Source: a virus
Lineage: Duplodnaviria; Caudoviricetes
Strand: one strand, 5' to 3'
DNA: 64,000 bases
Virus record (IMG/VR): IMGVR_UViG_3300032247_001802
Location: 7,999 to 71,998 of that record
The stretch's first letter is position 1, and each line of letters opens with the position of its first letter. The translations under genes and the position numbers were made by a program. Below are positions 49,552 to 63,583 of this stretch, piece after piece. Below the pieces are notes generated by a model, which was given only the letters and a program-made list of their open reading frames with translations, searched no databases and was not told the origin of the DNA.

Positions 49552-49938
49552 TGGACGCGAAAGGAGTTGAACCTTTGTCTTTTAAAAATTTAAATTAAAA
49601 TCCTACAAGTTTAGTCGCTTTTATTTTAGCCTTGTATTGATAAGCAACAACATACTTTGGCGATCTTATTTTTAATACTTAATATCAATAGAATAAACAA
49701 ACTATAAATAATAAGACATCTAATTACGCAACTATCCAATAGATGTGTCAAGGTAGTCACGCTGTAGAACTTAAGCTACAGAAACAGTCAACTCAACAAG
49801 AGAAGCTCTTGCGGAGATATGACCTTTATATTTTGCTGTTTTGGCAGTTAATATAAGTGAAACTTTTTAAGGAGTCCTCGGTTCAACCTCCACTTGCATT
49901 TTAATTGTAATCTCTAAAATCGAAACCAGTACGCGCCC
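49552..49938 (-). ncRNA. ssrA: tmRNA (transfer-messenger RNA)
   Basis: 5' GGGCGCGTACTGGTTTCGA; 3' GGTTCAACTCC T-arm and CGCGTCC-A; G3.U70 alanine pair; internal tag ORF 49845..49771 after TAACT; CCA not encoded. Confidence 0.93.
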
Positions 49939-50961: not shown

Positions 50962-51954
50962 TTAAATGTTCTCTTTATTTCCAGAGAAAATTACTTCTAC
51001 ATAGTCGTTTGTATTATGAATTATATAGGATTTTATAAAACATTGCATAGCTTGTAGTGTGTTAAATTTGTGTAAATTATTATTTTGATATAACTTGTAA
51101 GTATGAATTTTATCTAGAATATCACATTTATTAATAATAAGTTTTGTTACGCCAGAAATCCTAACTGCATCAATTAGTTTATTTAAATTCAGCCAATTAA
51201 CTATTCTTTTTCTACCAGTTGTAGAACCAAATTCTTGACCAATTTCTATAAGCATATTTAATTCATCATCTTGCCAAAGAGTTTCTGGAAAAAACGGATC
51301 TACCCCACTTTTAGTGTCATAAATTTTTGCCACCCCAATAATATCTTTAATTTTTTTAGGTGAAAATCCTAAAGAGCAAGCAGAATAAGGAAGAGTTTCG
51401 CTACTTGTGACATATGGATAATCTCCATAATTTAAATCTAACCAAAAACTTTGAGCACCTTCGCATAGTACGTTTCCATAAAGCTCTCCATCCCAAAGAT
51501 ATTCTTTATCTAAATAGTCTTTAGCAAGTTTGCCAACCCTTAATGCTTTATCTGCATAACATGGAGCAATACCTTGACCAGTTGTACCAAGTTTTGATTT
51601 TAAAAATTTCAGATCATATTGAATATGTTTTTCAGTAATAATATGAGCTTTTGGACTTACTTTGATTAATGATGAATTAAATCCTCCGCTTTTAAGATAA
51701 TCTATTTCATCAAAAAATTTATCAATGTTAATAACGCAATTTGGACCAATAATACTAAGTTTATTTTGAAAAACTCCGCAAGGAATAATATGAGTTTTAT
51801 ATTTTTTATCATTGATATAAACTGTATGACCTGCATTGGGACCACCATTCCAACGGCAAACAATATCATAATTCTTACTAATAGCATTACTTATTTTTCC
51901 TTTTCCTTCGTCTCCCCAAGCTAATCCAAAGATAATATCTACTGAATTTATCAT
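50962..51954 (-). CDS. purA: Adenylosuccinate synthetase (short form)
   Basis: WGDEGKGK, NGGPNAGHT, GTTGQGIAP.Y.DK, EGAQ...LD...G.YPYVTSS, G.TTGRKR. Confidence 0.93.
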   Translation of the reverse strand: MINSVDIIFGLAWGDEGKGKISNAISKNYDIVCRWNGGPNAGHTVYINDKKYKTHIIPCGVFQNKLSIIGPNCVINIDKFFDEIDYLKSGGFNSSLIKVSPKAHIITEKHIQYDLKFLKSKLGTTGQGIAPCYADKALRVGKLAKDYLDKEYLWDGELYGNVLCEGAQSFWLDLNYGDYPYVTSSETLPYSACSLGFSPKKIKDIIGVAKIYDTKSGVDPFFPETLWQDDELNMLIEIGQEFGSTTGRKRIVNWLNLNKLIDAVRISGVTKLIINKCDILDKIHTYKLYQNNNLHKFNTLQAMQCFIKSYIIHNTNDYVEVIFSGNKENI

Positions 51955-51964
51955 TTAATAAAAT

Positions 51965-51993
51965 ATTATATAATAAATATATAAGAAATACAA
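51965..51993 (-). promoter_or_regulatory. Sigma70-type promoter TTGTAT-17-TATAAT
   Basis: Predicted +1 about 51958, purA ATG at 51954. Confidence 0.6.
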
Positions 51994-52000
51994 GTGTAAA
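51994..52000 (+). promoter_or_regulatory. Putative late-promoter motif GTGTAAA
   Basis: 8 nt before ATG 52009. Confidence 0.5.
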
Positions 52001-52008
52001 TTATTAAT

Positions 52009-52995
52009 ATGTTTAAATATATACTTGGATTATCAGCTTTTTTATTAGCTTCTTGCGCTGCATTTTTTTCAGTTAAAGGAATAGCTCTTTTATTCGCGGC
52101 TAGTTTTTGGAGCGTTGGCATAATGGCTGGAAGCTTAGAGGTAGCTAAATTAGTTAGCGCAAGTTATCTTTATAGGTATTGGTCATCAATACATGATTTG
52201 CTTAAAAAATATATGTTATCTGCAACTATATTACTAATGTGCATAACAAGTCTTGGTATTTTTGGTTTTCTTTCAGATGCTTTTCAACGTAATTTTTCTC
52301 AATATTCTTTAAATTTAAATAAGATTGAAAGTTTAAAATCTCGACAAAACTTCTATATTTCTCAAATAGATTTTAATAAAAATAAATTAAAAGATCTTAT
52401 AGACTTACAAAAGACATATCAAGCATCTTTAGATAACGCTGTGAAACAAGATGTAACCACAACAAAAACTACTGGTGGTGGATTTTTTAGCTCTGCTAAA
52501 ACAGAAAAAGTAACAGACATTAAGTTAGTGGAAAGTAAAAATAAAATAGTTGAAGGATCTCAAAGTAATATTAATAGCTTATTCTCTCAAATATCTACAG
52601 TAACTTCTAATCTTCAAAATCTAGAAAAACAAAGTTTAGAAAATAACCAAGAAATAATGAAGCTTGAAAGTGATAACAGTAAAGGTGAAATTGGCACATT
52701 TAAATTTGTAGCAGATGCATTTGGATTAAAAATAGAAACTGCTGTAAGAATATTTATCATATTAATAGTTATCGTTTTCGATCCACTAGCTGTATGTTTA
52801 GTTATAGCCTATAACTCAATGATCAAAAAAACAGAAAATCAAGAAATCTCAAAACCAGAACAGGTAGTTCAAAATATTATAGAAAAACCATTGGATACAT
52901 TTAAAGTATTATATGAAAACCTGCATAAGAATTTCAAGCGAGGAACCAAAGCTAAACACAATCCAGATCTAGCAGATCCAAATATTGGGGATTAA
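52009..52995 (+). CDS. Membrane protein with three N-terminal TM helices, coiled coil and C-terminal TM helix
   Basis: Hydrophobicity pattern; SCAAFFSV.G, SLEVAKLV, IVFDPLAV motifs. Confidence 0.7.
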   Translation: MFKYILGLSAFLLASCAAFFSVKGIALLFAASFWSVGIMAGSLEVAKLVSASYLYRYWSSIHDLLKKYMLSATILLMCITSLGIFGFLSDAFQRNFSQYSLNLNKIESLKSRQNFYISQIDFNKNKLKDLIDLQKTYQASLDNAVKQDVTTTKTTGGGFFSSAKTEKVTDIKLVESKNKIVEGSQSNINSLFSQISTVTSNLQNLEKQSLENNQEIMKLESDNSKGEIGTFKFVADAFGLKIETAVRIFIILIVIVFDPLAVCLVIAYNSMIKKTENQEISKPEQVVQNIIEKPLDTFKVLYENLHKNFKRGTKAKHNPDLADPNIGD

Positions 52996-53171
52996 TATTT
53001 TTTGATTTTATAATTTTTATTAGAAGGATCTATCTTAAGCATATGAGCTTTGGCTTTAATTAATCCTTCTTTAGACGGAGGAAATACCCCATGAAGAAAG
53101 TTATCGCTTTTACTATAAACAGCGTAATATTTAGCTGGTTTCTGTTTCTTTGTTTTGATTTTCTTTTTCAT
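52992..53171 (-). CDS. Small basic hypothetical protein (59 aa), absent from the ORF track
   Basis: MKKKIKTKKQKPAKYYAVYSKSDNFLHGVFPPSKEGLIKAKAHMLKIDPSNKNYKIKKY; fills an otherwise empty gap. Confidence 0.55.
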   Translation of the reverse strand: MKKKIKTKKQKPAKYYAVYSKSDNFLHGVFPPSKEGLIKAKAHMLKIDPSNKNYKIKKY

Positions 53172-53382
53172 TTACCATTTTCATAAGATGCTCTTTTAGA
53201 GAGTCTTTAGCTTTTTCACAAAAATCTTGATTTAACTTACCACAACAATGTTTGAATTTTTTACCAGTAGATTGACAAATAGTATTTCTTGGTACTTTCG
53301 GATATATTCTTACTATTGGACTAAATTCCGTAGCCCTAGCATATTCAATTGAGGTTAATTTATCTATATTTTCTTTATTCAT
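53131..53382 (-). CDS. SEC-C motif (SecA C-terminal zinc-binding-like) protein
   Basis: PRNTICQSTGKKFKHCCG resembles RNxPCPCGSGKKYKxCCG. Confidence 0.7.
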   Translation of the reverse strand: MNKENIDKLTSIEYARATEFSPIVRIYPKVPRNTICQSTGKKFKHCCGKLNQDFCEKAKDSLKEHLMKMVNEKENQNKETETS

Positions 53383-53388
53383 TTTAAT

Positions 53389-53417
53389 ATTATAATGCCT
53401 TTGTTAATTTAAATCAA
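53389..53417 (-). promoter_or_regulatory. Sigma70-type promoter TTGATT-17-TATAAT (predicted +1 = A of ATG 53382)
   Basis: Direct reading. Confidence 0.7.
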
Positions 53418-54527
53418 TTATTTTCCATGAGCAAATCCCTCATACATGCTATTTGGGCTATTTCTAACAGCTTGTATAGTATTATTCCATAGACCACCAC
53501 GCATATCTTCTACATTTCTAAATCCAAGATAACTCATAGAACTTCTTAAACCATTAGTAAAATCATAAACAATATCTTCTATAGTTTTATTTTCAATAAT
53601 TGGAATTAAAGTATTATCTCCTTCTACGAATAGATTCTTTTTAGTTCCATCGTATAGATCATAATCTTCAACAACATCTTGACTTGCCATGCCTCTATAT
53701 TTAGCGAATCTCTTACCATCTATTTCAATGATATTTTCATCATCAACAACATCAAATAGTCCAGCAAAAATTCTACCACAAATAACAGCATCACATCCAC
53801 TAGCAATAGCTTTAACTAAATCTTTTGGATATCTAATTCCACCATCAGCAAGAATACTTGGTCTATGAGAAGGATTAGGTTTATCTTGTTTAAATAAATC
53901 AATTTGAGAAAGTTCCCAATTTCTTACAGCTTTCCAAGCGTAATAATTTCCAGTTAAACTTGGACATCCAATTCCAGTTTTAACTTGGGTTAAGCACATA
54001 GAACCTGGACCAATCAAATGCCTAAAACCATCGGCTTTAAGATTAGCAAGCCTATAAACACTTTCTTTTGTTAATGTATTACCTACTATAACATCTTGGG
54101 AAAATCCAGCCGTCTTATACCATCTAAGAAAATCTTCAACATTTTTAGCTAAACCATTAGCAGTATCCAAAAAATAAACATTAGTAAATGTACTGGTAGC
54201 TCTAATTCTTTCTTCTGCGTCTTTTAGACCAATAGCAGTAATGCAAAAATCACTTGCATCTTTAATAAGTTTAGCTTTAGATCTTTGATCATCAACAGAC
54301 ATGAATCTGTGCAAAACTCCAGCAGCACCAAGTTTATTCATCTTGATACACGACTTAACAGAAGATACCGTGTCCATTGGAGAAAGGATAATTGGAATTT
54401 TTATATTGCAATTTCTTGATATCTTGGTAGTGGTATCTACTTCTTTTCTAGAAGTGATGTCTGAAAAATTTGGCAGTAACGAAATATCATCGTAACTTAA
54501 AGCTTCTTTAAATTCTTGTTTTTGCAT
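53418..54527 (-). CDS. guaC: IMPDH/GMP reductase family enzyme, GMP reductase-like
   Basis: LSYDDI.LLP, SPMDTV, IGPGSMCLTQVKTG.G.P, ADGGIR, YRGMAS, GLRS.MSY.G; no CBS domain and no flap Arg-Tyr dyad. GuaB is not excluded. Confidence 0.7.
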   Translation of the reverse strand: MQKQEFKEALSYDDISLLPNFSDITSRKEVDTTTKISRNCNIKIPIILSPMDTVSSVKSCIKMNKLGAAGVLHRFMSVDDQRSKAKLIKDASDFCITAIGLKDAEERIRATSTFTNVYFLDTANGLAKNVEDFLRWYKTAGFSQDVIVGNTLTKESVYRLANLKADGFRHLIGPGSMCLTQVKTGIGCPSLTGNYYAWKAVRNWELSQIDLFKQDKPNPSHRPSILADGGIRYPKDLVKAIASGCDAVICGRIFAGLFDVVDDENIIEIDGKRFAKYRGMASQDVVEDYDLYDGTKKNLFVEGDNTLIPIIENKTIEDIVYDFTNGLRSSMSYLGFRNVEDMRGGLWNNTIQAVRNSPNSMYEGFAHGK

Positions 54528-54533
54528 TTATTT

Positions 54534-54562
54534 ATATTAAACTATTCTTTATAAACAATCAA
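54534..54562 (-). promoter_or_regulatory. Sigma70-type promoter TTGATT-17-TAATAT (predicted +1 = A of ATG 54527)
   Basis: Direct reading. Confidence 0.65.
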
Positions 54563-54570
54563 GAAAATAA

Positions 54571-54599
54571 TTGACTTAAAAATAAAAAACATTTAAGAT
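54571..54599 (+). promoter_or_regulatory. Sigma70-type promoter TTGACT-17-TAAGAT
   Basis: Divergent from the guaC promoter; predicted +1 about 54606. Confidence 0.65.
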
Positions 54600-54607
54600 A
54601 TCATCTT

Positions 54608-54682
54608 ATGCTACAAACAATTATATGCATAGCTATAGGAATTGGAATAGCCATAAAGTGGCATTTTTTTCAAAATGAATAA
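54608..54682 (+). CDS. Putative 24-aa membrane micropeptide
   Basis: MLQTIICIAIGIGIAIKWHFFQNE; ATG 2 nt after predicted +1; end overlaps the dCMP deaminase ATG. Confidence 0.45.
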   Translation: MLQTIICIAIGIGIAIKWHFFQNE

Positions 54683-55088
54683 TAGAATATCATTTATAGA
54701 AGCTGCGATTGAAACAGCTACGATATGGTCAAATAGATCAGAAGATCCATATAAAAAAGTTGGAGTATGCATCTTGAATAAGGATGGTAGGGTATTATCT
54801 GTAGGTTATAATGGTTTATTGCCAAAGTTTAATATTAATGAAGACTTCTTTAGCGATAGAGATAACAGAAGAAAATATATGATCCATGCTGAAATCAACG
54901 CTTTATCTTTGGTTAAAAGAGGAGATAAACCACATTTACTAGCTTCGACTTTATTACCTTGTTCAAATTGCGCTACTAATATTGTTGCATATGGAGTTAA
55001 AAGTGTGGTATACTCAGAAGAATATGAAAAGGATTCTATTGCAAAAGAGATATTTAAATTCTACAATATAGAGTTAATTAAAATATGA
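54675..55088 (+). CDS. dCMP deaminase
   Basis: S.DP..KVG, GYNG, HAEINAL, PCSNC zinc-deaminase motifs. Confidence 0.9.
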   Translation: MNNRISFIEAAIETATIWSNRSEDPYKKVGVCILNKDGRVLSVGYNGLLPKFNINEDFFSDRDNRRKYMIHAEINALSLVKRGDKPHLLASTLLPCSNCATNIVAYGVKSVVYSEEYEKDSIAKEIFKFYNIELIKI

Positions 55089-55570
55089 AATATATAATAC
55101 TATTATCATTTATAGGTAATTTAGCATTCGCCCAATCTGGAGCCGTATACGAAACATACAAAACTACAGGTGGCGGAACTAATCAATCTGATGGTACAAT
55201 TTTTAATAAACCATTTCAAGAATATAATTATGTTAAAACCGCTAGAGGAATAGAAGTATATCAGACTTATAAAACTGGCAGTGGAAACGGAACTAACCAA
55301 TCTCATGGTACTATATTTTCTAAACCATTTCCAGAGTATTATATAGTTAATAATAAAATATACAGAACATATAAAACTGATTATAAATCTACTAATCAAT
55401 CTCGTGGGACAATATTTGCTCAACCATTTGAGGCAAAAAATATCGATCCAAGCATTAATACTAAAGCTTTAAAAGAAAATATACAAACTCAAGTCCGAAC
55501 TCAACAAATTCGTACTGGGCAAGATTATCCAAGATACGACGGAACTGGAGATATATCTTATGGAGAATAA
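55085..55570 (+). CDS. Secreted repeat protein
   Basis: Signal peptide-like MKYIILLSFIGNLAFAQ followed by three repeats. Confidence 0.6.
   Translation: MKYIILLSFIGNLAFAQSGAVYETYKTTGGGTNQSDGTIFNKPFQEYNYVKTARGIEVYQTYKTGSGNGTNQSHGTIFSKPFPEYYIVNNKIYRTYKTDYKSTNQSRGTIFAQPFEAKNIDPSINTKALKENIQTQVRTQQIRTGQDYPRYDGTGDISYGE
55145..55432 (+). repeat. Three tandem protein repeats, YxTYKT...TNQSxGTIFxxPF
   Basis: Repeats start at 55145, 55256 and 55358; DNA core ACTAA(T/C)CAATCT is conserved in all three. Confidence 0.85.
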
Positions 55571-55573
55571 CAA

Positions 55574-56161
55574 ATGATTGGATTAACTGGAGTAGCTCGG
55601 TCTGGAAAAGATACTTTTTATTCTATCTTAAAAAGATATTTGAAAGAAAAGGGTATCAAATCTCAAAGACTAGCTTTTGCTGATGCATTAAAAAATGAAT
55701 TATATGATTTTACTAAAGATAAATTCAAAATAGATTTATTAAACTGCACACCAGAAAACAAAGAAATAGTGCGACCACTTATGGTTGCTTACGGAAAATG
55801 TAGAAGAATTCAAACAGAAGGAAAGTATTGGACTTCTACAATTCAACCAGAAGTAAACAAATTAATTGATAGAAATATTGTGCCAATTGTAACAGATGTA
55901 AGATATATAGAATATAAAGATGACGAATACTCTTGGATAAAATCACATAATGGTATTTTAGTGCATATTTCAAGAAAGCTGGACGATGGCTCTTTTGTCC
56001 CTCCAGCTAATATAGAAGAAAAATCTAATGACAATAAACTCAAAGCTGTATCTGATATAAGTATAGCTTGGGAAACTTGTCAAGATGCTAACTTCTTGTA
56101 TGAGTTAATGCAAAAACAATTAAAAAATGTTTACGAAAAATATTTACAGAATAAAAAATAA
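55574..56161 (+). CDS. Deoxynucleoside monophosphate kinase
   Basis: IGLTGVARSGKDT P-loop, AFADALK, R, DVRY..E. Confidence 0.85.
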   Translation: MIGLTGVARSGKDTFYSILKRYLKEKGIKSQRLAFADALKNELYDFTKDKFKIDLLNCTPENKEIVRPLMVAYGKCRRIQTEGKYWTSTIQPEVNKLIDRNIVPIVTDVRYIEYKDDEYSWIKSHNGILVHISRKLDDGSFVPPANIEEKSNDNKLKAVSDISIAWETCQDANFLYELMQKQLKNVYEKYLQNKK

Positions 56162-56162
56162 T

Positions 56163-56753
56163 ATGAATATAATAGATGACATTACTTTGGTAAAGAATAT
56201 AAAAGAAAAGAATGACGAAGAAGCATTAAAAACTTTAATCGAAAAACACTCTGCTCTTTGTAATTCTTTATATAAAAAATACTCTAGCCCTATGATTGCA
56301 TCTGGAGTGCATCTTCAAGATGTTATAGATCAAAAGGAGTATATAGTATATAAATCAGCCTTGAGCTTTGATGAGAATAAAAACTCTAAATTTTCAACTT
56401 GGTTATATAATCAAGTGAGATATCAATGTTTAAATTGCATGAATGAAAATAGCCATTACTTAACACTAGAAACAGATAAATTGAATTATCTTATTGAGAA
56501 ACATACTCCAATTCAAAAAGAATATAAAAATATTAATGAGTACATTATGAATATTATTGAATCTTGCGCTGATAAAAGAGTAGAGAAAATATTTAAAATG
56601 AGATACATGAATGGTACAAACAAAAAGACTCCTTGGAATAAAATAGCTAAAAAATTAAAGATAAGCACGCAAACTGCAATTAATATTCATAATAAAGCTA
56701 TTAAATTATTAAAAACTAAAGTTCAAAGTAAAAATTCTTTTGACAAAATATAA
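56163..56753 (+). CDS. Phage RNA polymerase sigma factor (sigma70 family, group 3/4-like)
   Basis: A...LI..H, FD..K.SKFSTWLY..VR region 2, C-terminal HTH (WNKIAKKL.ISTQT); start set at ATG 56163. Confidence 0.8.
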   Translation: MNIIDDITLVKNIKEKNDEEALKTLIEKHSALCNSLYKKYSSPMIASGVHLQDVIDQKEYIVYKSALSFDENKNSKFSTWLYNQVRYQCLNCMNENSHYLTLETDKLNYLIEKHTPIQKEYKNINEYIMNIIESCADKRVEKIFKMRYMNGTNKKTPWNKIAKKLKISTQTAINIHNKAIKLLKTKVQSKNSFDKI

Positions 56754-56768
56754 TAAAGAAAGTACAAT
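56740..56768 (+). promoter_or_regulatory. Sigma70-type promoter TTGACA-17-TACAAT (predicted +1 = A of ATG 56775)
   Basis: Direct reading. Confidence 0.72.
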
Positions 56769-56774
56769 ATAAAA

Positions 56775-57080
56775 ATGAATAATACAAATCAAAACACAAA
56801 CAAGAACCAAAATGAGCTAGGTGCACTTTGGAAGAAGAAAAGCAAAGCAGGAATGTCATTTCTATCTGGTTATATTAATGACCACGATGGTCAAAGAATT
56901 GATGTCGTAGTTTTTGCTAATAGCAAAAAGACAAATGAAAAAGCTCCAGATTACAGACTATATGTGTCTAAGCCTCTAGACAATCAAAACAAGCCTACGG
57001 CTTCTGGATCAGTAACTAAAAGTGCCCCAGCCAAGAAAGCTCAACCAGTAGTTGAAGAGGATGAAGATGACATCCTATGA
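56775..57080 (+). CDS. DUF736-like probable ssDNA-binding protein
   Basis: GALWKKKSKAG..FLSG.I, K..EKAPDYRLY, acidic tail EEDEDDIL. Confidence 0.65.
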   Translation: MNNTNQNTNKNQNELGALWKKKSKAGMSFLSGYINDHDGQRIDVVVFANSKKTNEKAPDYRLYVSKPLDNQNKPTASGSVTKSAPAKKAQPVVEEDEDDIL

Positions 57081-58162
57081 GTTTAGCGTTTAACTTACCA
57101 ATAAATTCAGTAAGTTTTGGTCAGATATCTACATTAATTCTTAGAGAGCTTTGTATTTCTAAGTTTAATGTAGGTATTTTACCTATTGGCAACGTTGATC
57201 TATCGACTCAATCCGATTTAACTCAAGAATTTGGAAATTGGCTACAGCAGTCAATTAATTCATCTCTAGAAACATTTAATCGAAATAATAAAATATTTAA
57301 ATTATGGCACCTTAATGGTTCATTTGAAAGTTACTCTAACGAACAAGTTCTGCTTAGCTTTTATGAATTAGATCAACCAACAAAAGTAGAATTAAATACT
57401 GTAAAAAATAATCATAAAGTACTTTTCTCGTCAAAAGAGACAGTAGAAATATTTAAGAACCTTGGATGCAAGAATGTTGAATATACTCCATTGGCATTTG
57501 ATAAGTATAATTTCAATAGAATAGATAAGTCTTATTTCGTTGATGATAGAATTGTTTTTAATTTAGTTGGAAAACTTGAAAAGAGAAAGCATCACCTAAA
57601 GCTAATTAAACTTTGGGCTAAAAAATTTGGTAATAATAAAAAGTATGCACTACAATGTTGCATCTTTAATCCATTTATGAAGCCAGAAGATCAAAATAAT
57701 CTTATCTCTCAAGCTTTAGAAGGTAAAACTTATTTTAATATTAATTTCTTACCATTTATGGGACAGAATAAAATCTATAACGATTTCTTAAATAGTGGTA
57801 ATATTGTACTAGGAATGAGTGGCGCAGAGGGATGGGGGCTACCAGAATTTCATTCAGTAGCTATGGGTAAACATGCAGTAATAATGAATGCTCATGGATA
57901 TAAATCTTGGGCAAATGAAAATAATAGCGTACTAGTACAACCTAACTCTAAAATTGAAGCTTATGATGGAATGTTCTTTAATAAAGGCGCACCATATAAT
58001 CAAGGCAATATTTATGACTTCAGTGAAGAAGAATTCATTAATGGTTGCGAATTAGCAATCAAAAAAGTAGAAAGCGATAAATTAAATAAAGAAGGACTTA
58101 AACTTCAACAAGAATTTACTTCTGAAAAATTTATTGAAAATGTACTAAGTCATTTAAAATAA
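57077..58162 (+). CDS. GT-B (GT4-like) glycosyltransferase
   Basis: GKLEKRK, SGAEGWGLPEFHSVAMGK, WA motifs. Confidence 0.78.
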   Translation: MSLAFNLPINSVSFGQISTLILRELCISKFNVGILPIGNVDLSTQSDLTQEFGNWLQQSINSSLETFNRNNKIFKLWHLNGSFESYSNEQVLLSFYELDQPTKVELNTVKNNHKVLFSSKETVEIFKNLGCKNVEYTPLAFDKYNFNRIDKSYFVDDRIVFNLVGKLEKRKHHLKLIKLWAKKFGNNKKYALQCCIFNPFMKPEDQNNLISQALEGKTYFNINFLPFMGQNKIYNDFLNSGNIVLGMSGAEGWGLPEFHSVAMGKHAVIMNAHGYKSWANENNSVLVQPNSKIEAYDGMFFNKGAPYNQGNIYDFSEEEFINGCELAIKKVESDKLNKEGLKLQQEFTSEKFIENVLSHLK

Positions 58163-58509
58163 TGCCACTATATACATACATTAATCCTAAAACAAAACAA
58201 ACAATAGACATTGTTCAATCGGTACATGACGAACATACTTATATAGATAAAAATGGATTGCAATGGAATCGAGTTTTTACCGCTCCAGAAGTTAATACCC
58301 ATGGAACATTAAAAGCAGAAACTTCAGAAAAGCAATTTTCAGAATTTACAAAAAATCGTAAAGGTACAATTGGAGATCTTTGGGACCAAAGCGCAGAGCT
58401 TTCAGAGAAAAGAAAGAAAGTTTATGGTGGGCAAGACCCAGTAAAAAAGAAGTATAAGAGTGATTGGAGCAAAAAAAGAAAAGGTCGCGTACACCCTAAA
58501 GACGACTAA
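58162..58509 (+). CDS. FmdB-like zinc-ribbon-derived protein (cysteines absent)
   Basis: MPLYTY N-terminus and RVFTAP; TAATG coupling to the upstream gene. Confidence 0.55.
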   Translation: MPLYTYINPKTKQTIDIVQSVHDEHTYIDKNGLQWNRVFTAPEVNTHGTLKAETSEKQFSEFTKNRKGTIGDLWDQSAELSEKRKKVYGGQDPVKKKYKSDWSKKRKGRVHPKDD

Positions 58510-58591
58510 AAACAAATTGTTTATAACTTATTAAAATTTTCTTTCTTTAATTTAAAAAAAGATGTAATATAGTTTTTGTACTAGTTACATT

Positions 58592-60853
58592 ATGAATAAG
58601 AATACAAACGTTAAAAAAAGAAATGGCTCGACTGAAAAGTTTAATATAGAAAAAATAAATAAAGTAATCAACTGGGCGATTGATGGTTATAGTGGAGTTA
58701 GTTTAACAGATATTGAAATTAATGCTAAGATTAATATTCACGACGGAATCAACACAAAAGAAATTCATAATCTTTTAATTGAAAGTGCGGCAAATTTAAT
58801 TTCAACTGAAAAACCAAATTATCAATATGTTGCAGCAAGGTTATTGAATTACCAGCTCAGAAAAGATGTTTGGAAAGGTAAGCATGCTCCTAGATTATCG
58901 GAATTTTTAAATCAAAATATTAAAAATAAAGTTTATGACTCAAGCATTTTAAATCATTACTCAGAAGATGAGATAAATAAAATTGGGGAATTTATTGATC
59001 ACGATAGAGATTTTATTTTTACTTACGCTGGAATCAAACAGCTTTGTGATAAATATTTAATTAAGAATAGAACTACTGGAGAAATTCACGAAACCCCACA
59101 ATTCGCTTATATCTTGATATCAACTTATGCTTTTGCAAAATATCCAGCAGAAACAAGACTTTCTTATGTTAGAAAATTTTACGATGCTATTAGTAAGCAT
59201 AAAATTAATCTTCCAACACCAGTAATGGCAGGAGTTAGAACATCTAGCAGAAATTACGCTAGTTGTTGCTTAATTGGAGTAGATGATACAAAAGATAGCA
59301 TTACTGCTAGTGCTACTGCAGTTAGTATGGCTACTGCTAATAGATGTGGAATCGGAATTGATGTAAGCAAAATTAGAGCTATTGGATCTTCTATTAAGAA
59401 TGGAGAAGTTGTTCATACTGGTTTAATTCCATTTTTAAAAATCTATGAAAGTAGCGTAAAGGCATGGCAACAAAATGGATTGAGAGGTGGTAGTGCAACC
59501 TGCAATATTCAATGGTGGCATTATGAAATTGAAGATATTGTTGTATTGAAAAATAATGCAGGAACAGATGACAATAGAGTTCGCAAACTTGACTATACAG
59601 TTGGTATGAGCAAGTTATTTTATGATAGAATATTAAAAGATGAAGATATTACTCTATTTAATAATGCAGAAGTTCCAGAGCTTTATGAGGCATGGGGAAC
59701 AAAAGATTTCGATAAAGTATATAAAGAATGTGAATCTAAAAAATTAAAATTAAAAAAGAAAATGTCTGCTCGCAAATTATTCTCTCTTATTATTAAAGAA
59801 AGAGTTGAAACTGGTAGAATTTATATTCTAAATGTAGATCATGCAAACAATCACGGAGCATGGTTAGATAAAGTCACAATGAGTAATCTTTGCACAGAAG
59901 TTATTCATCCTACTATTCCATTAAATGATTATCACGATAAAGAGGGCGAAATCGGAATGTGTATTCTTTCAGCGGTAAACATGCTAGAAATAAAAAACTG
60001 GCAAGATCTTGAAAAGACCTGCGATCTTATCGTAAGATTTCTAGACGAAATCATTGAGCTTCAAGATTATTTTAATATTGCTGCTGAAAATTTTGCTAAA
60101 AAAAGAAGAAGCCTTGGAGTTGGAATTACAAATCTCGCGGCTTTTTTGGCGAAAAATGAATTAAAATATAGTTCAGACAAATCACTATCTGTAGTTGATG
60201 AATGGATGGAGCATTTCCAATACTACTTATTAGAGAGTAGTGTAGAATTAGCTAAAGAAAAAGGCAAATGCGAAAAATTTGATAGAACTAAATACGCTAA
60301 AGATATATTACCTATTGATACATACAAAGACAAAGTAGACGAATTGGTTAAAAGAAAATTATCTCTTGATTGGGATAAACTAAGAAAAGATATCAAAGAA
60401 TTTGGCTTGAGACATTCTACATTATCTTCTTGTATGCCATGCGAGAGCAGTTCTGTAATTCAATGCTCAACAAATGGAGTCGAACCTATTCGTAGTCTTA
60501 TAACATATAAAACTAGCAAAATGGGTAAACTTCCAGTTATGGTTCCAGGAATTGGAAAATATCACGAGAATTATGAATTAGCCTATGATCTAAAAGATAA
60601 TACTGGATTACTTAAAATTAATGCAGTAATCCAAAAATATATTGACATGGCTATATCAACTAATGTATACTACAACTATAGTCATTATGAAAACAATATT
60701 CTTCCAGACGCAAAGGTTATGAAAGAACTTATTTATGCTTATAGCCTTGGATTAATTAGTCTCTATTATAATAATACAGATGATGGAGATAAAGAGCAGT
60801 CTTTGAATCAAAAAGAAGATAGAGATTGTTCAAGTGGTGCGTGTAAACTATAG
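58592..60853 (+). CDS. nrdA: Ribonucleoside-diphosphate reductase class Ia, alpha subunit
   Basis: N-terminal ATP cone (VKKRNG...EKFN), ETPQ, PTPVMAG, ASCC, NLCTE, CILS, MPCESSS, C-terminal CSSGAC. Confidence 0.97.
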   Translation: MNKNTNVKKRNGSTEKFNIEKINKVINWAIDGYSGVSLTDIEINAKINIHDGINTKEIHNLLIESAANLISTEKPNYQYVAARLLNYQLRKDVWKGKHAPRLSEFLNQNIKNKVYDSSILNHYSEDEINKIGEFIDHDRDFIFTYAGIKQLCDKYLIKNRTTGEIHETPQFAYILISTYAFAKYPAETRLSYVRKFYDAISKHKINLPTPVMAGVRTSSRNYASCCLIGVDDTKDSITASATAVSMATANRCGIGIDVSKIRAIGSSIKNGEVVHTGLIPFLKIYESSVKAWQQNGLRGGSATCNIQWWHYEIEDIVVLKNNAGTDDNRVRKLDYTVGMSKLFYDRILKDEDITLFNNAEVPELYEAWGTKDFDKVYKECESKKLKLKKKMSARKLFSLIIKERVETGRIYILNVDHANNHGAWLDKVTMSNLCTEVIHPTIPLNDYHDKEGEIGMCILSAVNMLEIKNWQDLEKTCDLIVRFLDEIIELQDYFNIAAENFAKKRRSLGVGITNLAAFLAKNELKYSSDKSLSVVDEWMEHFQYYLLESSVELAKEKGKCEKFDRTKYAKDILPIDTYKDKVDELVKRKLSLDWDKLRKDIKEFGLRHSTLSSCMPCESSSVIQCSTNGVEPIRSLITYKTSKMGKLPVMVPGIGKYHENYELAYDLKDNTGLLKINAVIQKYIDMAISTNVYYNYSHYENNILPDAKVMKELIYAYSLGLISLYYNNTDDGDKEQSLNQKEDRDCSSGACKL
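60841..60847 (+). promoter_or_regulatory. Putative late-promoter motif GTGTAAA within the end of nrdA
   Basis: 9 nt before the nrdB ATG. Confidence 0.4.
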
Positions 60854-60856
60854 TCC

Positions 60857-61921
60857 ATGAAAACAGTATTAAATTTTAAAAATGTAGATACCACCAAGCA
60901 ACCATTGTTTCTTGGTGAAGACCTCAACCTTCAAAGATATGATCGTTTTAAGTATCCAATATTCTTTGAATTATTTAAAAAGCAAAACGAAAACTTCTGG
61001 TGGCCTCATGAAATAGCATTAGGAAAAGACAGAAGTGACTATAAGAATTTAACTGACACAGAAAGATTTGTATTTGATAGTAATTTAAGATTCCAAACTC
61101 TTGGAGATAGTATGCTTTCTCGTAGTATTCACTCCTTGAAAGATTACGTCAGTAATCCAGAACTTGAAATTTGCATGAATACTTGGGCACAATTTGAAGG
61201 TATTCATAGTTATTCTTATTCTTATCTTTTGAATAATGTATATCCAGATGCTACTAAATTCTTTGATAGTATTATGGAAGATAAAGAGATTACAAGTCGC
61301 GCCGAATTGATTAGAAATAATTTTGATAAGATTCTTGGGGATGACGAAAAGAAAGATCCTAAACAAAAGATTTTTGATGCTATTCTTTCTATTAATGTAA
61401 TGGAAGGACTTGTATTTTACGTTTCTTTCGCTTGCTCTTTCTATTTTGGATATAGAGGTAAGATGGAAGGTAACTCTAAAATTATTAAATTCATTCAGCG
61501 AGATGAAGCACTACATTTTGCAGTAAGTCAAAATCTACTCAAGATCTTAAAAGAAGAAGATAAAGAAGGCTTTACTTCTATAGTTAAGAAAAGCGAAGAT
61601 AAGATTTATGCTTTCTATGAACAAGCAGCAAAAAATGAAAGCGAATGGTCTAAATATTTATTTAGCAAAGGCAGTTTACTTGGCTTAAATGCAGAAGTAT
61701 TAGATGGATATTCTAAATGGCTTTGCGATAGTAGACTACGCAGTTTAGGCTATAAGAAAATATTTAATCAAAAAGATAATCCCATCTCTGGATGGTTAGA
61801 TAGTTACCTTGATAGTAGTAAAGTTCAAGTTGCACCACAAGAAACAGAAATTTCAAGTTATAAAGTTGGAGCAAGAAAAACAGACATATCAGATGATGAC
61901 TTTGGTGATTTAAAACTATAA
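60857..61921 (+). CDS. nrdB: Ribonucleoside-diphosphate reductase class Ia, beta subunit
   Basis: FWWPHEI.L..D, FEGIHS.SY, EG..FY.SF, RDEALH, QVAPQE.E.SSY. Confidence 0.97.
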   Translation: MKTVLNFKNVDTTKQPLFLGEDLNLQRYDRFKYPIFFELFKKQNENFWWPHEIALGKDRSDYKNLTDTERFVFDSNLRFQTLGDSMLSRSIHSLKDYVSNPELEICMNTWAQFEGIHSYSYSYLLNNVYPDATKFFDSIMEDKEITSRAELIRNNFDKILGDDEKKDPKQKIFDAILSINVMEGLVFYVSFACSFYFGYRGKMEGNSKIIKFIQRDEALHFAVSQNLLKILKEEDKEGFTSIVKKSEDKIYAFYEQAAKNESEWSKYLFSKGSLLGLNAEVLDGYSKWLCDSRLRSLGYKKIFNQKDNPISGWLDSYLDSSKVQVAPQETEISSYKVGARKTDISDDDFGDLKL

Positions 61922-62161: not shown

Positions 62162-62162
62162 G

Positions 62163-62234
62163 AGCCAGAAATCGGATTCGAACCGATGACCTACGGTTTA
62201 CAAAACCGTTGCACTACCGCTGTGCTATTCTGGC
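62163..62234 (-). tRNA. tRNA-Thr(TGT)
   Basis: GCCAGAA/TTCTGGC acceptor, ACGGT-TTTGTAA-ACCGT anticodon arm, GGTTCGAATCC T-arm; no CCA. Confidence 0.95.
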
Positions 62235-62283: not shown

Positions 62284-62478
62284 ATGAGACTAGTATTATC
62301 ATATATTCTATATTTTATAGGTGATATTATAAGTAGAACACTAATGCTTTGGGGTTATGGATTTAAAATATATAACAAAATAATGCTTTGGAGCGTTGAT
62401 TTGGATAATAAAGGAAAAATTTGGAAACATGTTAAACCCAAGAGCAAATTAAAAAATAATAGGAAAAATAAAAAATGA
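62284..62478 (+). CDS. Hypothetical protein (64 aa)
   Basis: Leaderless-type promoter upstream; ATGA overlap with the next gene. Confidence 0.65.
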   Translation: MRLVLSYILYFIGDIISRTLMLWGYGFKIYNKIMLWSVDLDNKGKIWKHVKPKSKLKNNRKNKK

Positions 62479-63122
62479 ATAAAGAAACATTAGGTCTATT
62501 TTATAAACATGTAAAATCTATACAAAGATATGATAAAAAATTTTTAGATGAATTTTATCAAACAATCAATACAACAGAAGGATGGTTATGGCCTTATCAA
62601 GCGTATACATTATATGCTGTGGCATCTCATTTAAAGGGTAAATTAGTAGAAATTGGTAGTTGGAAAGGCAAGTCTGCTTCTGTTTTCTGTTTTGCAACAG
62701 AGCCCTCCGATGTTCAAATATATTGTGTTGATACTTGGAAAGGTAGCAAAGAACATAAAGATTTAGATACATCTAATTTATTAAATGAATTTAAAAATAA
62801 TTTACAAAAATTTAATTTCTTAAATAGAGTAAATATACAACAAGGACCATCTTTAGAAATTTCAAAACTTCATGAAAATGAAAGCTGTGATTTGATCTTT
62901 ATTGATGCTGCTCACGATTATGAAAATGTAAAAGCCGATATTTTAGCTTGGTATCCAAAACTTAAAAAACAAGGAATAATGATTGGTCATGATTATCCAG
63001 ATCCATCTGCAACAGACTTTAAAGAATTAAAACAAGCAGTAAATGAAGAAGTAAGAGATAAGAAAAATTTATTCGAAGATTTCGGATATTTTGCTGGCAT
63101 ATGGGGTGCAATTAAAAAATAA
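62475..63122 (+). CDS. Class I SAM-dependent O-methyltransferase (Methyltransf_24-like)
   Basis: EGW, VEIGSWKGKS, VDTW.GS, FIDAAHDYE.V..D, GHDY. Confidence 0.85.
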   Translation: MNKETLGLFYKHVKSIQRYDKKFLDEFYQTINTTEGWLWPYQAYTLYAVASHLKGKLVEIGSWKGKSASVFCFATEPSDVQIYCVDTWKGSKEHKDLDTSNLLNEFKNNLQKFNFLNRVNIQQGPSLEISKLHENESCDLIFIDAAHDYENVKADILAWYPKLKKQGIMIGHDYPDPSATDFKELKQAVNEEVRDKKNLFEDFGYFAGIWGAIKK

Positions 63123-63415: not shown

Positions 63416-63420
63416 TTTTT

Positions 63421-63492
63421 TGCCTAATAACACAACGGTAGTGTGCTTCACTGTTAATGAAGATGTTCTAGGTTCAAATCCTAGTTAGGCAG
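63421..63492 (+). tRNA. tRNA-Asn(GTT)
   Basis: TGCCTAA/TTAGGCA acceptor with G discriminator, CTTCA-CTGTTAA-TGAAG anticodon arm, CTAGG-TTCAAAT-CCTAG T-arm. Confidence 0.93.
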
Positions 63493-63495
63493 ATT

Positions 63496-63582
63496 GGAAC
63501 GATGGCTGAGTGGTCTAAAGCAGAAGTTTACTAAACTTCCGATGGGTAATTCCATCCGTGGGTTCGAATCCTACTCGTTCCG
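63496..63582 (+). tRNA. tRNA-Ser(ACT), class II with long variable arm
   Basis: GGAACGA/TCGTTCC acceptor, G73, GAAGT-TTACTAA-ACTTC anticodon arm (ACT at 63530-63532), GATGG/CCATC variable stem, GGTTCGAATCC. Confidence 0.92.
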
Positions 63583-63583
63583 A

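Follow-up and report, generated by a model that had tools for sequence, protein, structure and literature searches.

The DNA analyzed here (hereafter, the window) forms the terminal 64 kb of a linear virus record in IMG/VR that is 72 kb long (~29% G+C, estimated 48% complete). It encodes a 2102-a.a. tape measure protein, a gpJ-like tail protein, a DnaE-like polymerase, DnaB, and NrdAB, alongside a sigma factor, a set of purine and pyrimidine metabolism genes, and a tmRNA. Taken together, the tape measure and gpJ-like proteins and the polymerase and metabolism genes identify the source of the window as a large siphovirus-like phage. Three tRNA genes are present, on which ARAGORN and Rfam agree. 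The first, tRNA-Thr(UGU) (62162–62234, minus strand; Rfam, 74 bits), completes the small tRNA set of the phage and lies apart from the other two, which form a pair on the plus strand. This pair comprises tRNA-Asn(GUU) (63420–63493; Rfam, 68.2 bits) and, directly downstream of it, the gene of main interest, a class II tRNA-Ser(ACU) (63496–63582) with a long variable arm, a G73 discriminator, and no encoded CCA. The tRNA-Asn(GUU) gene adjoins tRNA-Ser(ACU) in most related loci. We did note that a class I SAM methyltransferase (62475–63122, plus strand; Pfam Methyltransf_24, 82.6 bits) lies just 5′ of the Asn-Ser pair, and that it is kept beside the pair in relatives at 81–89% identity.

A nucleotide-metabolism block occupies positions 50962–61921 of the window and comprises a PurA-like adenylosuccinate synthase (50962–51954), an IMPDH/GMP-reductase-like gene (53418–54527), a dCMP deaminase (54675–55088), a kinase-like ORF (55574–56161), and NrdA/NrdB (58592–61921), with a phage sigma factor (56127–56753) inside the block. 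The tmRNA is of the one-piece type (49552–49938, minus strand; ARAGORN; Rfam RF00023, 104 bits), carries the 24-residue tag AKTAKYKGHISARASLVELTVSVA, and is conserved in 13 related loci, in which every tag variant ends in -SVA. Searches for the host via single genes gave no assignment: cultured relatives of the DnaE-like polymerase all shared ≤32% identity, the look-alikes of PurA belonged to viral clusters, and the tmRNA tags of three CPR genomes showed no clear link. The two CPR tags that were read are of 26 residues (Magasanikbacteria, likewise long) and 12 residues. Verrucomicrobia share the acceptor stem GGAACG- in their Ser(GCT) genes but were rejected as the host given their mismatched G+C content.

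The tRNA-Ser(ACU) gene was called by ARAGORN as tRNA-Ser(act) at 63495–63583 on the plus strand, and Rfam model RF00005 matched it at 63496–63582 with 54.4 bits (gathering score of 29; E = 6e-9). The acceptor stem (GGAACGA/TCGTTCC) supplies the pairs G1-C72, G2-C71, and A3-U70 and is followed by G73, while the D stem has 3 bp, including C11-G24. The anticodon stem (GAAGT/ACTTC; 63523–63527 and 63535–63539) closes a 7-nt loop (TTACTAA, 63528–63534) corresponding to U32-U33-A34-C35-U36-A37-A38, in which the anticodon ACT (A34, C35, U36) occupies 63530–63532 and A34 is position 63530. The remainder of the molecule consists of an 18-nt variable region, in which GATGG/CCATC forms a 5-bp stem, and a T arm (GTGGG/TTCGAAT/CCTAC). 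Without constraints, free-energy folding returned the cloverleaf (−30.2 kcal/mol, z = −3.2). A preliminary description of the locus had reported a complete serine-type cloverleaf with a long variable arm, G73, and the loop TT-ACT-AA, and the sequence, both programs (Rfam and ARAGORN), and the fold all confirm it. In E. coli tRNA-Ser, the identity elements of the acceptor and D stems are G1-C72, G2-C71, A3-U70, C11-G24, and G73, and all of these are present in the window gene. By these features, the gene has everything characteristic of a bacterial class II tRNA-Ser and would be a substrate of seryl-tRNA synthetase. It is not the tRNA-Ser(GCU) isoacceptor, which has G34, as position 63530 is A. 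The argument in the preliminary description that A34 is uncommon in bacteria, being usually a property of tRNA-Arg(ACG) and of four-codon boxes, was right in our judgment.

The gene is one of a large family. An exact scan with position 34 set to N recovered the same gene in three further IMG/VR contigs, one with different flanks, and a looser scan with positions 31, 32, 34, and 39 free recovered 62 metagenome and 41 IMG/VR loci, some contigs being present in both collections. With position 34 free, all 116 matches of this looser scan (~100 lake-phage loci) carried A34. A third scan used the acceptor and D arm only, leaving the anticodon arm unconstrained, and fetched 43 IMG/VR stretches, all of which (43/43, including three new ones) carried Ser(act). 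Contigs of four other runs (three of lake water and one of sediment, by label) showed no other letter at 63530, while they do vary at positions 63546, 63550, 63551, and 63553 in the variable loop. Among the 36 distinct tRNA sequences, 99.4% of pair cells were kept, and double-sided changes occurred at three pairs (3-70, 4-69, and 31-39), values that none of 500 shuffles attained. Pairs of the variable arm and T stem alternate between G-C or A-U and G-U across the 36 variants, and other family members have compensated anticodon stems (GCGGT/ACCGC and GAAAT/ATTTC).

These results dispose of the reading that A34 is an assembly or sequencing error or that the gene is a decaying pseudogene, the probability of which we regard as negligible. 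The identical allele occurs in many independent metagenomes and in the contigs of four other runs, and compensatory changes preserve the structure. The preliminary description had allowed for an assembly error at 63530 and suggested a search for the same allele in related phages; given that the same A34 gene is present in ~100 other loci, and that the contigs of the four runs show no variant, such an error is excluded. As judged from its conservation, Ser(ACU) is a working tRNA under purifying selection with A34 fixed, and neither an error nor a product of decay.

Some variation was seen at the discriminator, as five of the 36 family variants (e.g., L052, L069, L080, L102, L128) have A73 in place of G73, and one of the five also shows a mismatch at G2-A71. 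Bacterial tRNA-Leu and tRNA-Tyr have A73 as their discriminator, and the charging fidelity of these variants may therefore merit attention.

ARAGORN called Ser(act) 102 times across the related loci, followed by Asn(gtt) (61), Thr(tgt) (30), tmRNA (13), and Pro(tgg) (6); Ser(gct) was absent from the calls across the ~100 family loci. Ser(ACU) is the sole tRNA in the relative G009 (136 kb, 87% complete), whereas 11 tRNAs were found in the relative G010 (132 kb, 86% complete). U34 or A34 anticodons account for nine of these 11, and the set includes Arg(UCU) and Ser(ACU) and lacks Ser(GCU). Ser(ACU) is thus the core and most persistent tRNA of the clade. In one 22-kb record classed as having inverted terminal repeats (IMGVR_UViG_3300032321_001533), an Asn-Ser(ACT)-Thr cluster is present at both ends in opposite orientation; this could reflect a genuine terminal repeat or a fold-back in the assembly.

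Codon usage was counted in the 63 long ORFs of the window (19,383 codons), which contain 356 AGT, 171 AGC, 529 AGA, and 44 AGG codons. The preliminary description had proposed A34 as an adaptation to codon bias, with AGT being common in this genome. The first half of this idea stands, as AGT does outnumber AGC. The idea is only partly supported, however, because AGY is 68% T-ending, compared to 80–91% in most NNY pairs, and so is among the least T-biased pairs of the genome. Furthermore, the phage tRNA-Asn keeps G34 despite AAT making up 87% of Asn codons, and in the viral sample described below, carriers of ACT and GCT were alike in AGT/(AGT+AGC) (0.62 vs. 0.59, p = 0.57; a comparison of low power, as the loci are short and related). 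AGT richness as the cause of A34 is, hence, unsupported both within the genome and across carriers. The structural module is somewhat enriched in AGT, AAT, ACT, and ACA. Phage tRNAs are usually thought to aid late-protein synthesis, and this enrichment fits that idea yet leaves A34 unexplained.

We favor a better-supported form of the codon-bias idea, to which we give a probability of roughly 0.6: the gene would be a functional phage tRNA-Ser in which A34 replaces the G34 of Ser(GCU), and its product would be charged, left unmodified, and restricted to AGU, with AGC left to the host. Such a specialist would be affordable since the host still supplies Ser(GCU). Under this reading, tRNA-Ser(ACU) would be co-transcribed with the upstream genes and tRNA-Asn, processed, and provided with its CCA by the host. 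The host seryl-tRNA synthetase, which recognizes its tRNAs by acceptor stem and long variable arm and not by the anticodon, would charge it. A34 would remain unmodified because U36 stands where the TadA substrate tRNA-Arg(ACG) has G36, and the unmodified base would consequently pair with AGU in Watson-Crick fashion, with essentially no other codon being read. AGC would be left to the host tRNA-Ser(GCU) and AGA to tRNA-Arg(UCU). Because the phage need not cover the whole codon pair, it could afford, and presumably benefit from, a one-codon specialist, unlike a cell that has just one Ser(GCU) gene. As a counterpoint, the same logic predicts A34 for Asn, Asp, His, Tyr, Phe, and Cys, where it is nearly absent from the viral sample.

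Work in E. coli provides a close experimental parallel for this decoding. An orthogonal M. jannaschii tRNA with ACU in a tRNA-Arg2-type loop contained no inosine, read AGU at 9.4% and AGG at 0.36%, and read AGC and AGA below detection (PMC11066159). Overexpression of Ser-tRNA(ACU) improved the growth of E. coli, where engineered ANN tRNAs are mostly near neutral (10.64898/2026.05.15.725136). These decoding results are possibly not transferable to the host of this phage.

The main question about the wobble base is whether A34 is edited. A host TadA could convert it to I34, by which AGU and AGC would both be read, plus AGA, with serine being placed at arginine codons. The anticodon loop shares U33-A34-C35 and A37-A38 with tRNA-Arg(ACG), and in some relatives (loop CTACTAA), C32 as well; yet it departs from the TadA-substrate loop C32-U33-A34-C35-G36-A37-A38, being U-U-A-C-U-A-A in the window, with U36 in place of G36 in all relatives and U32 in place of C32 in most. 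E. coli TadA partly edits tRNAs with some non-Arg anticodons, e.g., AUG and AAG (PMC5137457, PMC11066159), and this editing of other anticodons is lost upon change at position 32, 37, or 38 (PMC5137457). One viral Ser(act) array also has Arg(acg), which makes a TadA-bearing host likely in that case. Against editing, ACU went unedited in E. coli even in an Arg2-type loop (PMC11066159), and relatives have a dedicated Arg(UCU) beside Ser(ACU). A was also found at 63530, with no A>G change, in contigs from two metatranscriptome libraries, a weak point given that such contigs may derive from DNA or unprocessed precursor RNA and drop minor variants.

The codon counts bear directly on this alternative. 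AGA is the main arginine codon of the window (529/670, 79%; 27 per 1000 codons), and its inosine-based misreading as serine would therefore be costly, which bears out the relevance of the earlier remark that I34 could miscode AGA. As the misreading-prone codons AGA and AGG (573) exceed the cognate AGT and AGC (527), discrimination by A34 must be good. Inosine is, accordingly, disfavored both by the heavy use of AGA and by what was found in E. coli, and we consider it quite unlikely. A TadA-like gene was found in none of three near-complete relatives searched whole (G009, G010, and G011). In the window, a single ORF has a deaminase motif (54675–55088; HAE...PCxxC); it was tried as a phage-encoded TadA and rejected, given a full-length ComEB match and PDB relatives that are all dCMP deaminases.

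Ser(ACU) is not confined to this family. We scanned IMG/VR with a generic Ser D-arm pattern and T-R-CTAA and listed 120 stretches; among the matches listed, 41 Ser(RCU) genes had A34 (ACU) and 78 had G34 (n = 119). ARAGORN called Ser(act) only in 39 of these listed loci and Ser(gct) only in 74, with none containing both. The ACT genes among these matches have many different tRNA bodies, and their loci range from 27 to 56% G+C. A scan of bacterial genomes with a narrower D-arm pattern gave 117 genes with G34 and three with A34 among the matches listed. Since the two scans used different D-arm patterns, the viral excess among the matches listed (41/119 vs. 3/120) is indicative and not a measured value; the narrow bacterial pattern applied to the viral sample gave nine matches (two A, seven G). 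With regard to the arrays themselves, viral Ser(act) arrays (in the IMG/VR sample and in G010) often also have Ile(tat) and Arg(tct), the former being an anticodon listed as lost in prokaryotes by a 2021 review (PMC8007984). Other A34 genes among the viral matches listed were Leu(aag) (four), Thr(agt) (four), Phe(aaa) (one), and Tyr(ata) (one).

The three bacteria with A34 (one Paceibacterota, one Saccharibacteria, and one Magasanikbacteria) are all members of the CPR, and a generic ACT pattern matched two of 300 further Patescibacteria genomes (even sample). In all three, Ser(ACT) shares a contig with a Ser(GCT) gene of different sequence, 0.2 to ~5 kb away, and the sporadic two-codon-box ANN tRNAs of bacteria are likewise reported to sit beside a GNN gene (10.64898/2026.05.15.725136). 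ACT without GCT in phages, and beside GCT in cells, is the arrangement expected because a supplementary tRNA can specialize, while the sole AGY reader of a cell cannot. In these three incomplete assemblies, no TadA was found above the cut-off, the best matches to the TadA model resembling dCMP deaminases, and the pattern used detected no Arg(ACG), with Arg(GCG) being present in one. These results count further against inosine, and suggest that wobble A-to-I editing may be missing altogether from cells with Ser(ACU).

Among cultured phages, eight matches were checked from a similarity search using a common viral ACT tRNA as the query (phiA8-29, Fifi067, Bellamy, A3Wally, S-CBWM1, Bastille, RAS14, and a first match in 121Q), and all were rejected, as each either proved to be a Ser(tga) or Ser(gct) gene or lacked ACT by pattern. 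A pattern search of the whole record of Escherichia phage 121Q was the only route to its tRNA-Ser(act) (KM507819.1, 75464–75555), which is annotated as such in GenBank, was confirmed by ARAGORN, and has Asn(gtt) close by. Ser(ACU) is, thus, kept within lineages that include the lake-phage family, 24 further viral clusters, three CPR genomes, and phage 121Q.

The substitution of ACT for GCT in phage tRNA sets, never in company with GCT among the matches listed, could also be understood as a means of evading host defense. A defense or toxin nuclease that cuts the anticodon loop of tRNA-Ser(GCU) would spare an A34 copy, and the phage tRNA would restore AGU reading. Resistant phage tRNAs are an established idea, with anticodon nucleases having been reviewed as antiviral defense in 2026 (PMC13191261), and the idea would fit with Ser(ACU) being more persistent than any other tRNA of the clade and standing alone in G009. 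Nevertheless, destruction of the host tRNA would leave the 171 AGC codons of the window without a reader, the neighboring Asn and Thr tRNAs have ordinary anticodons, and the literature searched yielded no nuclease specific for tRNA-Ser(GCU). With ACU found in unrelated phages of 27–56% G+C and in CPR bacteria, such a nuclease would also need a very wide spread. We therefore hold nuclease escape to be unlikely.

Another view is that A34 is tolerated without being useful, the G-to-A change having become fixed since the host covers AGY and the tRNA adds little. Such neutrality would be in keeping with the failure of codon usage to separate ACT from GCT carriers and with the near-neutral behavior of most engineered ANN tRNAs in E. 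coli (10.64898/2026.05.15.725136). A neutral site, though, is expected to revert or vary. A34 is invariant in 36 variants while the stems change with compensation, no cluster mixes A34 and G34, and Ser(ACU) is the last tRNA retained in a near-complete relative. Neutral tolerance is contradicted by this invariance, and we deem it very improbable.

A34 in Ser(ACU) could have arisen once or many times. Clustering of the genes at ≥88% identity gave 28 clusters with ACT only, 95 with GCT only, and none that were mixed. A quick maximum-likelihood tree required 16–19 changes between A34 and G34, compared to ~39 with shuffled labels, and a single clade of all ACT genes was not rejected (p-AU of 0.67 with the anticodon arm and 0.16 without it). 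G30-C40 was present in 28/28 ACT cluster representatives, as opposed to 34/95 of those with GCT (Fisher p = 1.4e-10, with relatedness being ignored), although two members of the lake-phage family have A30-U40. Sequences of 88 nt do not separate common descent from a functional tuning of this stem. We propose tentatively, at somewhat less than even odds, that Ser(ACU) is a distinct, long-lived, and mainly viral isoacceptor lineage and not a set of scattered G34A mutants. If that is true, phages routinely use a textbook-forbidden anticodon, with A34 unmodified, as a one-codon reader, and the "prohibition" reflects the need of a cell to cover the AGY pair with a single gene and no defect of A34.

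Several known tRNAs resemble Ser(ACU) in part. The closest is the standard AGY reader of bacteria and phages, tRNA-Ser(GCU), with which it has in common the class II body, G73, the pairs G1-C72, G2-C71, and A3-U70, and the loop N-U-N-C-U-A-A; among cultured phages, cyanophage S-SKS1 (HQ633071) provides the best match with its GCT gene, at 81% identity across the 3′ half. Ser(ACU) differs from it in A34, by which the reading of AGC should be lost according to wobble rules and the E. coli data (PMC11066159). tRNA-Arg(ACG), the one near-universal bacterial A34 tRNA, which TadA converts to I34, shares the encoded A34, U33, C35, A37, and A38, but has G36 where Ser(ACU) has U36 and serves a four-codon box where Ser(ACU) serves a split one. 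The Leu(AAG) and Thr(AGU) of Leuconostocaceae, lactic acid bacteria, and Mollicutes are cases in which A34 has likewise been kept evolutionarily (PMC8007984, 10.64898/2026.05.15.725136). These tRNAs read four-codon boxes, in which third-base misreading is harmless, whereas AGN is split between serine and arginine; moreover, they replace the GNN gene of a cell, while the phage Ser(ACU) would leave AGC to the host.

Two sources offer the same anticodon. The ACU tRNAs engineered in E. coli (PMC11066159; Ser-tRNA(ACU) of a G34A library, 10.64898/2026.05.15.725136), of which the library member also has the same amino acid, are laboratory constructs that proved functional, specific for AGU, and non-toxic, with the unedited state being shown for the orthogonal tRNA. 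The Ser(act) of phage 121Q has the same anticodon and amino acid in a different tRNA body, within a 349-kb jumbo E. coli phage that has many tRNAs.

Split-box ANN anticodons were described as universally missing, phages included, in a 2021 review (PMC8007984), and a 2026 preprint repeats their absence, with only sporadic bacterial cases that are always beside GNN (10.64898/2026.05.15.725136). Our literature search found no paper on a natural phage Ser(ACU), nor any discussing the gene of 121Q, the one example annotated in GenBank. New here are how large and how strictly conserved the lake-phage Ser(ACU) family is; its status as the core tRNA of the clade; the finding that ACT and GCT exclude each other in phage sets (among the matches listed) but coexist in cells; the negative outcome of the codon-usage comparison; the G30-C40 signature; and the failure to detect a TadA in the carriers that were examined.

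With a phage clade whose Ser(ACU) is under clear purifying selection, the rule that split-box ANN tRNAs are absent fails for viruses. In annotation, Ser(ACU) genes should not be set aside as errors or pseudogenes. Since Crick's wobble paper, the question has reportedly stood of why tRNAs avoid an unmodified wobble A, and Ser(ACU) is a natural test case for why cells avoid A34 tRNAs. Given that 121Q carries such a gene, its modification state, decoding range, and fitness value are measurable in a standard laboratory host.
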